Shown here: positions 4,454-7,054 of the stretch, in pieces | How positions within the stretch are numbered: position 1 is the stretch's first letter | Layout: every line of letters begins with the position of its first letter | Virus record (IMG/VR): IMGVR_UViG_2547132270_000003 | Location: 1-7,054 of that record | Reading direction: 5' to 3' (one strand) | Source: a virus | Lineage: Duplodnaviria > Heunggongvirae > Uroviricota > Caudoviricetes | Length of the DNA: 7,054 nt | The notes under the pieces: generated by a model | What the model was told of the DNA's origin: nothing | Seen by the model: the letters and a program-made list of their open reading frames with translations, nothing else | The model's database searches: none | Translations under genes and position numbers: made by a program

Positions 4454-4483
4454 AGGCACCTCCCCCAATTTTTATGCCTGCAT

Positions 4484-4804
4484 TCAGGCTTTTTCCAGCG
4501 TACACAGCAATGGATGCTCATTCTCCCTCGCATACTTGTTCACCATCGCTACTTTGGTTTCTGCAACCTCAGCGGTAAAGACGCCGCAAATGGCCTTCCC
4601 CTGGTAGTGAACAGCGAGCATCAATTGCGTTGCACGTTCTACATCATAAGAAAAGAATTTTTGTAACACGTCAATAACAAACTCCATCGGAGTGTAATCA
4701 TCATTGACTAATATCACTTTATACATAGATGGCGGTTTTAGCGCGTCGCGCACTCTTTCTTCCGCCAGTTGCTCAAAGTCCAGCCAGTCGTTCGTTTTAC
4801 CCAT
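4484..4804 (-). CDS. clpS: ClpS, ClpAP adaptor for N-degron substrates (106 aa)
   Basis: ORF track 4484..4804 (-): [51 protein letters not shown]..., which matches E. coli ClpS from memory. It lies 30 nt upstream of clpA, the canonical clpS-clpA arrangement. Confidence 0.95.
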
Positions 4805-4977
4805 TGTCAGTTATCATCTTCGGTTACGGTTATCGGCAGAACGCTCTGCCGCTGACAAGAGCTTATTTGCCTGACCAATCTACTTCACATGATAGATAAC
4901 TATCATTTATATCATTTAGTTAATTAGTCTTTATTTTTCATTATGTTGCAAATAACAAGCCCGTCAAAAACAGTGAT

Positions 4978-5034
4978 ATTAACTACACCATTAACTACAC
5001 CGCTTCACGAACAATATCGAACAACCGCGAACAA
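4978..5034. repeat. Perfect tandem 12-bp repeat (ATTAACTACACC x2) followed by three CGAACAA heptamers at exact 10-bp phasing
   Basis: Read directly: ATTAACTACACC at 4978..4989 and 4990..5001; CGAACAA at 5008..5014, 5018..5024 and 5028..5034. It lies about 175 to 230 bp upstream of the clpS start in an AT-rich region. Confidence 0.5.
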
Positions 5035-5299
5035 AGATCAACACGCTTTAATCATTATCATTTTCCGGCTATCCGTCATGAAGCTGGTGGATGATCTGCG
5101 TGGTGATTTCCACCATTCAGAGCAGGGCGGTCATCATGACCATGCCATAACAAAAACCCCATATTCGTGGTTTTTCTGTGTCGGGGCTATTCTGCTGTTG
5201 CCGTGCTGGTGGATATTCTCCGGTATGCGGCTCCCCATATCGGCATCAGGCCCACCAGCGTGAAGCGTTTTTCATTTTTCGCGGGTATAAAAAATCGAT

Positions 5300-5348
5300 G
5301 GGGCGGGCAGTCCTGAAGAGGTCAGGATACAGAGATTTGACCCGCCCC
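5300..5348 (-). other. GC-rich hairpin (GGGGCGGG ... CCCGCCCC) with an inner TCCTGA/TCAGGA hairpin; terminator-like for leftward transcripts
   Basis: Inverted repeat GGGGCGGG (5300..5307) and CCCGCCCC (5341..5348). On the minus strand a T6 tract follows, but after a 5-nt spacer, so it is not a textbook terminator. A 14-bp perfect palindrome GGCGGAATTCCGCC lies nearby at 5381..5394. Confidence 0.35.
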
Positions 5349-5524
5349 CTCCCTGTGCATGAGCACAATAAGTAACCAAAGGCGGAATTCCGCCCTCGGT
5401 GCTCACATATAAGAAACGATATTTCTTCCACCGATCCCCTGTATTTTGGTATCGCGGGTAAGCCCCAAAATCTGGGTGTTACTCTTACTACCCAAACTAC
5501 GGGTAGTTTCCGTAGTTTCTGGTC

Positions 5525-5544
5525 GAGTTGCAGATCTGCAACTC
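5525..5544. promoter_or_regulatory. 20-bp perfect palindrome GAGTTGCAGATCTGCAACTC (candidate protein-binding site)
   Basis: Read directly; the sequence is its own reverse complement over 20 bp, in a region with no convincing gene. Confidence 0.4.
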
Positions 5545-5800
5545 ACCCACCAGCTAACCCATTTTTGGGCCGTCGGGAATATCAACCAGTTACTGCCAGT
5601 GATCTGGATGTTCTGCAGTCTGGCTGGTGGCTGGACGCTGATTTTTTGCGTACCTGTATCGGTTTCGTATCCGGTGGATGTTCTGCGTACTTTTCAGAGG
5701 CGGATTTCCGCCCACGCCATTCTGGACCAGTTGAAGGGGCCGAATACATCACCGGATTTAGGGGATGTTCCCGGCCTCCTCAATTTGAGGATTGTGGAAG

Positions 5801-5869
5801 AATCAATGGGTTAGTCTTACTGTCCCTCATTTCCTGCATTGCAGGTTTTCGAAATAATCAATGGGTTAG
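5801..5869. repeat. Direct repeats AATCAATGGGTTAG (5801..5814 and 5856..5869), 55 bp apart
   Basis: Read directly. A third, inverted copy of the ATGGGTTAG core (plus-strand CTAACCCAT) lies near 5553..5561. The second direct copy overlaps the TGA (5858..5860) that ends the open frame downstream of the 94-aa ORF. Confidence 0.5.
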
Positions 5870-6031
5870 GCCATCGTGCAATTTTGCACTTTGCCAGCCA
5901 GCGCAATGTTGCGTTATCGGGAATATCAGCACGTTACCGGCTTTCGTCATGTTAAACACTGGCCAGGCATCGCCATTCTTATCAATAAAATCACCAGGCT
6001 CAAAATTGAGCTTTGCTTTAATCTCAGCAAG

Positions 6032-6316
6032 TTACCGCCGTAACCGTTCCGGCTTCTTCCACTGGTAAGTTTTTTTCTCGCTCTCCTGATACATCGCCAC
6101 ACGTCGACGGTATGCCAGCAACTCTAATACCCTGGTTCGTATGTCGCGCATATCCACGCCGTTAAGATCGATACCGTCACAGCGCATCACCTCAGCCACC
6201 ACACGCGCGTAATTTTCAGCGGTGACGGTATCAGGCTGCATGGCCTCCTGTGTGCCAGCCTGCTGGCTGATTCCGGTAACGCGGCGGATTAATCCCAGTA
6301 GTTCGGCTTCTGTCAT
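6032..6316 (-). CDS. Hypothetical small protein (94 aa) immediately downstream of the terS-like gene, possibly a truncated or interrupted gene
   Basis: ORF track 6032..6316 (-), starting at an ATG 11 nt after the terS-like stop with no clear Shine-Dalgarno, so translational coupling is plausible. It ends at TAA 6032..6034, and the same frame stays open for 57 more codons to TGA at 5858..5860. It does not resemble the lambda large terminase gpA N-terminus as I recall it. Confidence 0.5.
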   Translation of the reverse strand: MTEAELLGLIRRVTGISQQAGTQEAMQPDTVTAENYARVVAEVMRCDGIDLNGVDMRDIRTRVLELLAYRRRVAMYQESEKKTYQWKKPERLRR

Positions 6317-6327
6317 AGTGCGCTACG

Positions 6328-6870
6328 TTACTTGTCTTTATCCGGCTGAAACTTATCAGGCACATTTCCGGTAGTTTCCATCAGATAATCGGACAGTATT
6401 CGCGGGATGTTTTCATCAAGTTTTGTGCATGCGTTACAGGCTCTGACAACTTCCTTTTTAAGTCCATCCAGCATAGCGGGGGTAATCTGTGGGAAGCGCC
6501 TTTGCATGGTAAGCGGCAAACTGTCCATGATTGAAGAAATCTGACTCGCCAGTTTTGAAAGCACATATATACAAAATTCCGTACTAATAACGTCGCCGCG
6601 TTCGCGCTCGTTTTTAAGCTCCTGCGCCTCCGCCTGCGCTGTCAGCAATCTGATCCTGACTCGCAAAAGTTCATCATTATCAATCTCGCCTTTGTCGTCT
6701 GTAATCTGGTTAATTGCATTGCTAACCCGATTGTCTATTACGCTGGCAACATCATAAAACGCCTCGCGGCCTTTACGTTCAACGGGAGTCACTCCCCACT
6801 TGTCGAACGCTGTCGCACTTACACGGCAGCTTTGCGCCATGTTTTTTTTGTTCATCAGGTACGATTTCAT
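6328..6870 (-). CDS. terS: Phage lambda Nu1-like terminase small subunit (TerS)
   Basis: ORF track 6328..6882 (-). The C-terminal two thirds (LLTAQAEAQELKNERERGDVISTEFCIYVLSKLASQISSIMDSLPLTMQRRFP...LDENIPRILSDYLME) aligns with lambda Nu1 as I recall it (RLTRAQADAQELKNARDSAEVVETAFCTFVLSRIAGEIASILDGLPLSVQRRFP...LDELIPGLLSEYIE). The N-terminal region is divergent. The track start at 6882 is a GTG; I prefer ATG at 6870, which has GGGGA 5 nt upstream, and ATG at 6855 is an alternative. Confidence 0.85.
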   Translation of the reverse strand: MKSYLMNKKNMAQSCRVSATAFDKWGVTPVERKGREAFYDVASVIDNRVSNAINQITDDKGEIDNDELLRVRIRLLTAQAEAQELKNERERGDVISTEFCIYVLSKLASQISSIMDSLPLTMQRRFPQITPAMLDGLKKEVVRACNACTKLDENIPRILSDYLMETTGNVPDKFQPDKDK

Positions 6871-7054
6871 CAATATCCCCACTTAAGTAATGTTTCAGGT
6901 TGGTGTATTGGTTTTATCTTTCCCTTTTTATTCATAGAGATAGAGCGAACAACAAAACCACCACCAATCCCCTAAAAATACTCATAAATAGCGAAAACCC
7001 GCAAGGTCGCCGCCCCGTAGCCTACCGGATCGCCGGAAAGGACCCGCCAGCCAG
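6871..7054 (-). other. Lambda-type cos site: cosN cohesive-end sequence at 7004..7015 with a divergent cosB between cosN and terS
   Basis: Minus strand reads CTACG GGGCGGCGACCT TGCGGGTTTTCGCTATTTATGAGTATTTTTAGGGG. From memory the lambda left end is GGGCGGCGACCTCGCGGGTTTTCGCTATTTATGAAAATTTTCCGG, so the 12-nt cohesive end and the adjoining ~22 nt are nearly identical. Similarity is lost after about 35 nt, through the ~135 bp up to the terS start. Confidence 0.75.

Follow-up and report, generated by a model that had tools for sequence, protein, structure and literature searches.

The stretch of DNA analysed here (the window, 7,054 nucleotides of the IMG/VR virus record IMGVR_UViG_2547132270_000003) ends in a cos site of the lambda type. 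This site occupies positions 6871-7054, is read on the minus strand, and lies upstream of terS, a gene that encodes a small terminase subunit of the Nu1 family (TerS). It is the cos site of an integrated satellite, a phage-inducible chromosomal island (PICI) of the EcCIIHE3034 kind, located between cspD and clpS. The window is chromosomal. Downstream of cos on its minus strand come terS, an open reading frame (ORF) of 94 aa, a stretch of some 1.1 kb in which no gene is convincing, then clpS and clpA, and finally a CRISPR repeat and a cas1 gene, both of type I-F. Positions given as bp are counted from the first base of the cohesive end, which is 145 bp upstream of the terS start codon (ATG at 6870). 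The features of the site and its specificity gene are the following:

7039-7045, minus strand: cosQ, GGGTCCT, which has the sequence and the spacing of lambda bp 48473-48479 and precedes the top-strand nick by 30 nt
7002-7017, minus strand: cosN, with GGGCGGCGACCT at 7004-7015 and 2 bp on either side
6982-7001, minus strand: right cosN flank, or I2 region (bp 15-34), CGGGTTTTCGCTATTTATGA, with all 20 bp equal to lambda and common to lambda-like phages
6966-6981, minus strand: variable spacer (bp 35-50), where the similarity to phages stops; the least conserved part downstream of cosN, with a mean major-allele frequency of 0.84
6948-6965, minus strand: candidate TerS-binding site (bp 51-68), GGTGGTGGTTTTGTTGTT, at the R3-equivalent position of cosB; the binding is predicted
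6912-6947, minus strand: A/T-rich middle of cosB (bp 69-104), with no recognisable site for the integration host factor (IHF)
6892-6911, minus strand: second conserved block (bp 105-124), CCAATACACCAACCTGAAAC, in which ACACCAACCTGAAAC is nearly invariant
6328-6870, minus strand: terS, a 180-aa small terminase of the Nu1 family (Pfam Phage_Nu1, E 8.8e-24)

At the end of the window the minus strand reads CTGGCTGGCGGGTCCTTTCCGGCGATCCGGTAGGCTACG GGGCGGCGACCT TGCGGGTTTTCGCTATTTATGA GTATTTTTAGGGG, the left side of the nick being CGGGTCCTTTCCGGCGATCCGGTAGGCTACG. The cohesive end GGGCGGCGACCT is the same in lambda, phi80 and 21, and its exact copy at 7004-7015 is the sole match in the window even when two mismatches are allowed. 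We aligned the window with phage 21 (M81255) and with lambda (NC_001416) after joining both lambda ends. From bp -31 to +34 (minus strand, 7047 to 6982), 60 of the 65 positions are identical to lambda without gaps, four of the five mismatches fall in the spacer between cosQ and cosN, and the remaining one is C13T. The cohesive end is flanked by ACG on the left and by TGC on the right (CGC in lambda), and the T at bp 13 is a polymorphism common to several relatives. cosQ sits within a conserved block, CGGGTCCTTTCCGG, at the position of R4 in lambda and 21. Nicks are predicted at 7016/7015 on the minus strand and at 7004/7003 on the plus strand. A blastn search of window positions 6700-7054 against 50,697 phage records matched 87 of them, including lambda, phage 21 and Stx phages, with E values down to 8e-22. 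Among the listed matches, all are confined to query positions 6-88, i.e., about 7049 to 6967 of the window (some 80 bp around cosQ-cosN), so that no phage record is detectably similar to the remaining intergenic sequence or to the 5' portion of terS. As a sequence match, the resemblance to lambda cos at the window edge is far beyond chance. An earlier note, made from the letters of the window, had placed a lambda-type cos with a conserved cosN at this edge, and this is borne out by the exact 12-mer, cosQ, the alignment with lambda and the blastn matches. The 22-mer that it gave as nearly identical to lambda matches at 21 of 22 positions, and the 12-mer is not the isolated match that would have spoken against the idea: its flanks are conserved over the whole interval from bp -31 to +34. 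We looked across the window for a second cos site, such as the cos2 of EcCICFT073, and found none; there is a single cosN. A scan for promoters and terminators in this sequence gave nothing beyond chance, and no tRNA genes were found.

The likeness to lambda and 21 collapses beyond bp 34. No R boxes of the lambda or 21 type were found in the alignments of the region past this point. The IHF consensus WATCAANNNNTTR has no match with up to two mismatches in cosB, nor in the I2 region (bp 15-34), unlike the I2 of lambda; the same scan finds both lambda I1 (one to two mismatches) and lambda I2. The earlier description of the ~135 bp between cosN and terS as unlike lambda cosB is thus accurate for the R boxes and the IHF sites but too broad for bp 48-82, a G/T-rich, R3-like stretch that is still ~60% identical to lambda in the global alignment.

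We compared this region with its relatives, a set of 83 sites (80 related loci from viral contigs, GB089, IHE3034 and the window) with 51 unique upstream sequences. Among the latter, cosQ is nearly invariant, and the most variable parts are the cosQ-cosN spacer and bp 35-50. Across the relatives, 16 of 19 columns are invariant in bp 15-34. The most conserved segment of the region is bp 51-68, with a mean major-allele frequency of 0.989, higher than that of cosN, and 12 of its 18 columns invariant. Its distance from cosN equals that of R3 in lambda (bp 50-65, with contacts at 55-63) and in N15 (bp 48-60) [PMC9026076]. Over bp 51-60 the window has GGTGGTGGTT and N15 has GGTTGTTGTT, which are identical at 8 of 10 positions. 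The motif GGTGGTGGTGTTGTT is retained in the helper-embedded PICIs of Enterobacter and other Enterobacteriaceae despite diverged flanks; their TerS are 55-57% identical to that of the window and conserve its N15-like DNA-binding domain. Given its position, its conservation and the N15-like domain of TerS, we infer that bp 51-68 is the TerS-binding site. The second conserved block (bp 105-124) may be another TerS site, in inverted orientation, or a signal for terS expression. Part of it, CAATACACCCAC, survives in one distant PICI, and the block has a weak resemblance (13/26) to the inverted R3-equivalent. Two pairs of imperfect inverted repeats (6900-6912/6963-6975 and 6909-6925/6944-6960) were taken as chance, the first pair having one arm in the variable spacer.

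TerS aligns with lambda Nu1 over its full length (37% identity, E 4e-36), and its best phage relative is N15 gp1 (47%). Its regions differ in their affinities. Over residues 1-50, identity is highest to N15 gp1 (60%) and lower to lambda (41%) and phage 21 (34%). The recognition helix has the motif AFDKWGV, as in N15, where lambda has TIQNWQEQG and 21 has TIERWQSQG, and TerS has the deletions of N15 in the wing and after the DNA-binding domain. The central self-assembly region is 53-56% identical to lambda and N15. The C-terminus retains the pattern LDExIPxxLSxY of lambda, phi80 and N15, not that of phage 21. It is followed by an extension of ~12 residues, NVPDKFQPDKDK (residues ~169-180, window 6328-6363), which is absent in lambda, phi80, N15 and 21 and variable among PICI TerS. 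In an AlphaFold model built with 21 homologues, the N-terminus forms a strand, helix 1, helix 2, a hairpin and helix 3, i.e., a predicted winged helix-turn-helix. The best Foldseek matches of this model are MerR-type winged-helix DNA-binding domains, all of them weak, and the search retrieved neither Nu1 (1J9I) nor RppC, for both of which a winged-helix fold has been reported.

In EcCICFT073, the specificity is provided by Rpp, which complexes with the TerS of the helper, and the complex reads the cosB of the island [PMC6092414, PMC6739421, PMC9026076]. Neither TerS nor the 127-aa protein encoded upstream of cos has similarity to RppA or RppC, including in the search of the PDB, and tblastn of RppA gave no match in the window or in any of four related elements. 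The positive control of this search, RppA against 6HLK, gave an E value of 5e-31, so an Rpp homologue would have been detected. The upstream 127-aa gene is itself ruled out as an Rpp, as it belongs to the AlpA family (8C3T, E 1.5e-10). Searches of the PDB with the sequences of TerS and of the 94-aa ORF gave no meaningful match. Since there is no similarity to Rpp and there is a single cos site, the element is a TerS-type cos PICI and not an Rpp-type one.

The natural variants of the site are informative about how its parts evolve. The cohesive-end 12-mer is present with at most one mismatch in 67 of the 83 sites, and the other 16 have variant ends at the same aligned position. In 82 sites the cohesive end and the downstream terS ATG are 145 bp apart; L087, the exception, has a 3-bp deletion. 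The variant ends (GGGCGGCAGACG, GGGCGTCAGGCG, GGGCGGAAGGCG and GGGCGGCTGACG) are those of loci L013-L015, L025, L037, L041, L049-L052 and L054-L059, and at least one of them is the cos of lambda-type phages, PhiR46_1 (L107) and YDC107_1. The PICI of locus L049 has the end GGGCGGAAGGCG, and its cosQ-cosN-I2 module is identical to that of phage PhiR46_1; this phage has a lambda-type Nu1 (93%) and a lambda-type cosB, whereas the PICI keeps a PICI cosB. A natural chimera is the TerS P0103 (L096, 6001-6585 and 5684-6000), whose N-terminal ~100 residues are of the type of phage 21 and CFT073 prophage 4 and whose C-terminal half is 87-95% identical to the TerS of the window. The PICI that encodes it, next to phoQ, has the cohesive end GGGCGTCGACCT and R3, R2 and R1 boxes of the 21 type (CATGTC.G, in the arrangement of phage 21). 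The type of cosB thus follows the type of the TerS DNA-binding domain.

A direct comparison between a satellite and an enclosing helper comes from E. coli JNE23-011 (L106, 6000-18526), in which a PICI with the cos/terS module is inserted in the portal gene of a prophage, a helper-embedded configuration that has been described [PMC10111431]. The junction between this PICI and the prophage is shared by 57 genomes. The enclosing prophage has a Nu1 that is 99% identical to that of lambda and a lambda-type cosB. Over cosQ-cosN-I2 there are just 3 differences in 64 positions between the cos sites of satellite and prophage, which are unrelated from bp 35 on. The chimera P0103, the helper that encloses the JNE23-011 element and the variant shared by L049 and PhiR46_1 show by comparison that the site is modular, with a nicking module that tracks lambda-type phages and a binding module that tracks the satellite TerS. 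PICIs with this cos/terS module occur in the late genes of lambdoid prophages, in the portal gene B (E. coli) or the major capsid gene E (Enterobacter and other Enterobacteriaceae) (L027/L028, L100-L105). The elements of Enterobacteriaceae carry cargo after terS (an FRG domain, DUF3892 and a 402-aa ORF). The terminase genes of their helpers lie beyond the flanks that were fetched, and a complete E. coli genome was used instead for the comparison with the helper.

The window holds only the right ~2.2 kb of the satellite and attR, the right attachment (att) site, with these further features:

6032-6316, minus strand: 94-aa ORF, 11 bp from terS, with no match in Pfam or the PDB
4907-6031, minus strand: largely non-coding satellite tail of ~1.1 kb, inside the att-bounded element, with two families of imperfect direct repeats
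4896-4906, minus strand: attR core ATGATAGTTAT, the right end of the satellite, immediately upstream of clpS; unique in the window

We read the full element from six E. coli loci that encode an identical TerS and are 99.5-99.6% identical, without gaps, to window positions 4470-7054. Their order is attL, int, alpA, DUF4222, D5-type primase, SSB, Phage_cap_E, HDPD, an AlpA-like gene, cos, terS, the 94-aa ORF and attR. The integrase is a tyrosine integrase that adjoins cspD, the capsid gene resembles lambda E (gpE-like), HDPD is a head-decoration gene (gpD-like), and the AlpA-family gene (127 aa) ends 18 bp past the window edge. The 11-bp core ATGATAGTTAT is present twice in locus L006, 10,900 bp apart, and bounds the element. 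No terL, tail or lysis genes were found in the satellite (window and six loci). The element has the architecture of a PICI: it is flanked by att sites, spans ~10.9 kb and carries int, alpA, a primase and a packaging module, and its integration site and att core are those catalogued for EcCIIHE3034 and EcCI18098. The suggestion in the earlier note of a cos-type satellite is supported, as the element is a PICI without terL. The note had also asked whether lysis or other phage genes lie just beyond 7054: the six loci have satellite genes there, not lysis genes. Among 5,426 complete E. coli genomes, 762 (~14%) carry the cos and terS module at a coverage of at least 80%, and the identical TerS protein is found in many E. 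coli assemblies.

The 94-aa ORF has a counterpart of 93 aa, with 74% identity, behind rppA and cos2 in EcCICFT073. These ORFs are common to TerS-type and Rpp-type PICIs, and always lie directly downstream of the specificity gene. The repeats of the tail are at about 5549-5592, 5776-5813, 5831-5868 and 5890-5935, in families GTAAC..TGATATTCCCGA... and CTAACCCATTGATT..., and each has a match to the IHF consensus (exact at 5580-5592, 5801-5813 and 5856-5868, with one mismatch at 5924-5936). This repeat-bearing tail is a possible attP arm, regulatory region or RNA gene. Outside the satellite, the type I-F cas1 and a CRISPR-DR4 repeat adjoin clpA (597-1586, 1813-1840, 2094-2136). In the six loci with the identical satellite, infA comes shortly after clpA in place of cas1 and CRISPR. 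An Rfam match, ES036 (CssrF), places a small RNA directly downstream of clpA.

We consider it likely, from these comparisons, that the satellite TerS attaches to the cosB of the satellite and brings the large terminase subunit (TerL) of a lambda-type helper to a cosN that is compatible with the helper. Under this model, a lambda-type helper would induce the satellite, which would excise and replicate into concatemers. The satellite TerS would then bind the satellite-specific cosB through its N15-like winged-helix domain, with bp 51-68 as the main candidate site, and would bring the gpA-type TerL of the helper to a cosQ-cosN module that hardly differs from that of the helper. TerL would nick this module to produce the 12-nt GGGCGGCGACCT ends, the satellite DNA would be packaged into particles built by the helper, and cosQ would serve termination. 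The satellite would in this way divert the motor of the helper from the helper's own cosB. The binding of TerS to bp 51-68, the direct contact between TerS and TerL, the cleavage at the site and the interference with the helper are inferred steps, and direct recruitment of TerL is the weakest of them. Four copies of the element would add up to 43.6 kb (4 x 10.9 kb), or ~90% of the length of the lambda genome, which would suit a head of lambda size; small capsids made of the satellite's own gpE-like and gpD-like proteins are a possible alternative.

The earlier note had expected a conserved nicking site combined with a private binding site that is recognised by the satellite's own small subunit. 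Several comparisons agree with this, namely the lack of terL, a Nu1 homologue with a different DNA-binding domain, the co-variation of cosB with this domain and the pair of cos sites in JNE23-011. The word private, however, applies with respect to helpers of the lambda and 21 types and not more widely, as both the domain and the motif at the R3 position are N15-like.

Several observations weigh against the proposed mechanism. EcCIIHE3034 and EcCI18098, the closest described islands, were not transferred after mitomycin induction of the resident prophages [PMC6092414]. N15 is reported to package lambda DNA [PMC9026076], and a sequence divergence of this degree is therefore not proof of a distinct specificity. 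The cosB has no recognisable IHF site in the scan with up to two mismatches. The last 41 residues of TerS are just 34-41% identical to any phage TerS, and it is the C-terminal region of lambda TerS that binds gpA [PMC9026076], so direct recruitment of the helper TerL is not assured. The conservation of the central region would equally permit mixed oligomers with the helper TerS. Finally, the structural model of TerS has low confidence (pLDDT 65.7), and the E values of its fold matches are 0.2-3.

The permissive central region leads to an alternative in which the satellite TerS would act as Rpp does: it would co-assemble with the helper TerS through its central domain, the mixed complex would read the satellite cosB, the helper subunits would provide the link to TerL, and the packaging of the helper would be poisoned. 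That the centre of the protein is its part best conserved with lambda and N15, in contrast to its C-terminal 41 residues, fits this idea, and so does the location of terS exactly at the place of rppA in EcCICFT073, between cos and the 93/94-aa ORF, in a type of system where the helper TerS is indispensable [PMC6092414, PMC6739421]. Yet TerS is full length, whereas Rpp proteins have 144-153 aa and no TerL-binding tail [PMC9026076], it keeps the LDExIPxxLSxY pattern of the lambda/phi80/N15 class, and it has no sequence similarity to Rpp. We therefore regard this alternative as unlikely. It is even harder to reconcile the data with a cosB that is read by the helper TerS, as in satellites that use the helper's cos (SaPIbov5), with a satellite TerS that mainly interferes or is dispensable. 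Plasmids with the cos of EcCICFT073 are transferred by lambda and phi80 without Rpp, albeit at a reduced frequency [PMC6092414], N15 reportedly has the same packaging specificity as lambda although their cosB sequences differ [PMC9026076], and bp 48-68 keep a residual G/T-rich likeness to lambda R3. Under such a scenario, though, one would not expect bp 51-68 to be more conserved than cosN across PICIs and unlike the cosB of the enclosing lambda-type helper, nor the type of cosB to switch along with that of the TerS DNA-binding domain, nor terS to be intact and so widely conserved (762/5,426 genomes); we see little chance that it is correct.

A Nu1-family gene and a lambda-like cosN without an adjacent terL could in principle also be what a deletion left of a lambdoid prophage, i.e., a cos and a nu1 without a present function. 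We rejected this on the grounds of architecture and conservation, and its probability seems close to nil: the ~10.9 kb att-bounded architecture (int, alpA, primase, capsid-like genes) recurs in many genomes, terS is intact at a fixed distance of 145 bp from cos to its ATG, and the element has integrated at several different sites, some of them within the late genes of prophages.

Returning to delivery of the helper TerL by the satellite TerS, a broader proposal is evenly balanced in our judgement. TerS-type cos PICIs may represent a second, Rpp-independent route of hijacking, in which a full-length Nu1 homologue that has an N15-like DNA-binding domain and a short cosB of its own would recruit the helper gpA directly and make the helper TerS dispensable. 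This route would be modular, the cosQ-cosN cassette being exchanged with the lambda-type helper at hand, and TerS DNA-binding domains being swapped between satellites together with their matching cosB, of which the chimera P0103 would be an example. The exchange of cosQ-cosN with lambda-type helpers would account for the variants of the cohesive end that are shared with specific phages.

Part of this picture has been published: the combination of a divergent cosB with a conserved cosQ/cosN in PICIs, the family of satellites at cspD-clpS, and the idea that packaging is redirected by a PICI TerS [PMC6092414, PMC6739421, PMC9026076, PMC10085698]. In the literature searched we found no dedicated study of EcCIIHE3034 or of a TerS-type cos PICI, and no description of the cos site of a TerS-type E. 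coli PICI, of the pairing of an N15-like domain with its R3 or of the modular exchange. These three elements are a modest addition to a known family of satellites, and the general picture of satellite packaging is unchanged. What they add is the packaging signal of those E. coli PICIs that encode TerS, a module found in ~14% of the complete genomes, for which the literature searched describes neither the cos site nor the helper. They also provide concrete sites (cosN at 7004-7015 and the candidate TerS site at 6948-6965) and natural pairs of helper and satellite, the helpers being phage PhiR46_1 and the lambda-type prophage of JNE23-011. A satellite TerS that functions without that of the helper would contrast with the mechanism of Rpp, and would also explain how these islands move virulence and defence cargo by means of lambda-like phages.

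Compared with a lambda-type cos, the site has cosN with its flanks and a cosQ ~30 bp upstream, but its cosB lacks the arrangement R3-I1-R2-R1, and the Nu1-family terS is followed not by terL but by the 94-aa ORF, the tail and attR. Its closest known counterparts, EcCIIHE3034 and EcCI18098, are TerS-encoding PICIs at cspD-clpS (Fillol-Salom et al. 2018, PMC6092414; att core and size in its supplement). They have the same site, the same att core ATGATAGTTAT, a similar size (10.5-10.9 kb) and a gene order that ends with cos, terS and the 93/94-aa ORF. The TerS of EcCIIHE3034 is 82% identical to that of the window, and cosN is 145 bp upstream of terS in both. The two differ in the cosQ-cosN spacer, in parts of cosB and in the gene directly upstream of cos, a 137-aa hypothetical protein in IHE3034 and the 127-aa AlpA-family protein here. 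We found no published description of the cos site of either island in the literature searched.

EcCICFT073 has a cosQ and cosN that resemble those of lambda and phi80 and a cosB that is unrelated to theirs (Fillol-Salom et al. 2019, PMC6739421; Murialdo and Feiss 2022, PMC9026076; also PMC6092414), and its sites of this composition are functional [PMC6092414, PMC6739421]. Its order is a capsid-like gene, a decoration-like gene, a 137-aa ORF, cos1, rppA, cos2 (inverted) and the 93-aa ORF. Its cos1 is like the site described here in having a lambda/phi80-like cosQ and cosN with a cosB unlike that of the helper, and in lying downstream of the capsid- and decoration-like genes with the specificity gene directly behind it, so that terS occupies here the position of rppA. 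The differences are that Rpp has 144 aa and shares no similarity with the full-length 180-aa Nu1 homologue, that EcCICFT073 has two opposite cos sites and the window one, that its cosN is 101 bp (here 145 bp) from the start of the gene, and that the cosB are different. In the pathogenicity islands of Staphylococcus aureus (SaPIs), a small terminase encoded by the satellite redirects the large terminase of the helper to satellite DNA [PMC10085698]. The principle would be the same here, but the SaPI TerS serves headful (pac) packaging, whereas this element has a cos site whose nicking sequence is shared with the helper.

Among phages, N15 has the closest TerS (gp1): identity is 47% over the whole protein and reaches 60% in the DNA-binding domain, and both proteins have the same deletions, in the wing and behind the domain. 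Its R3 motif GGTTGTTGTT corresponds to bp 51-60 here, and neither cosB has an IHF I1 site [PMC9026076]. N15 differs by its cohesive end GGGCGGCGTCCG, by its own terL and by a cosB of ~40 bp with terS starting at bp 89; the cosB here is 60 bp longer (145 bp to terS) and has a second conserved block. As in the present case, phage 21 and lambda have the same cohesive end and a similar cosQ/cosN, together with R boxes that differ and are each matched to the DNA-binding domain of the respective TerS. Phage 21, however, is a whole phage that encodes a TerL and a TerS with a matched C-terminus, whereas the satellite has TerS alone, with a C-terminus of the lambda/phi80/N15 pattern. The satellite TerS is homologous to the TerS of its putative helpers, and its putative use of a site of its own is supported by the conservation of this candidate site and by the co-variation of cosB with the DNA-binding domain.

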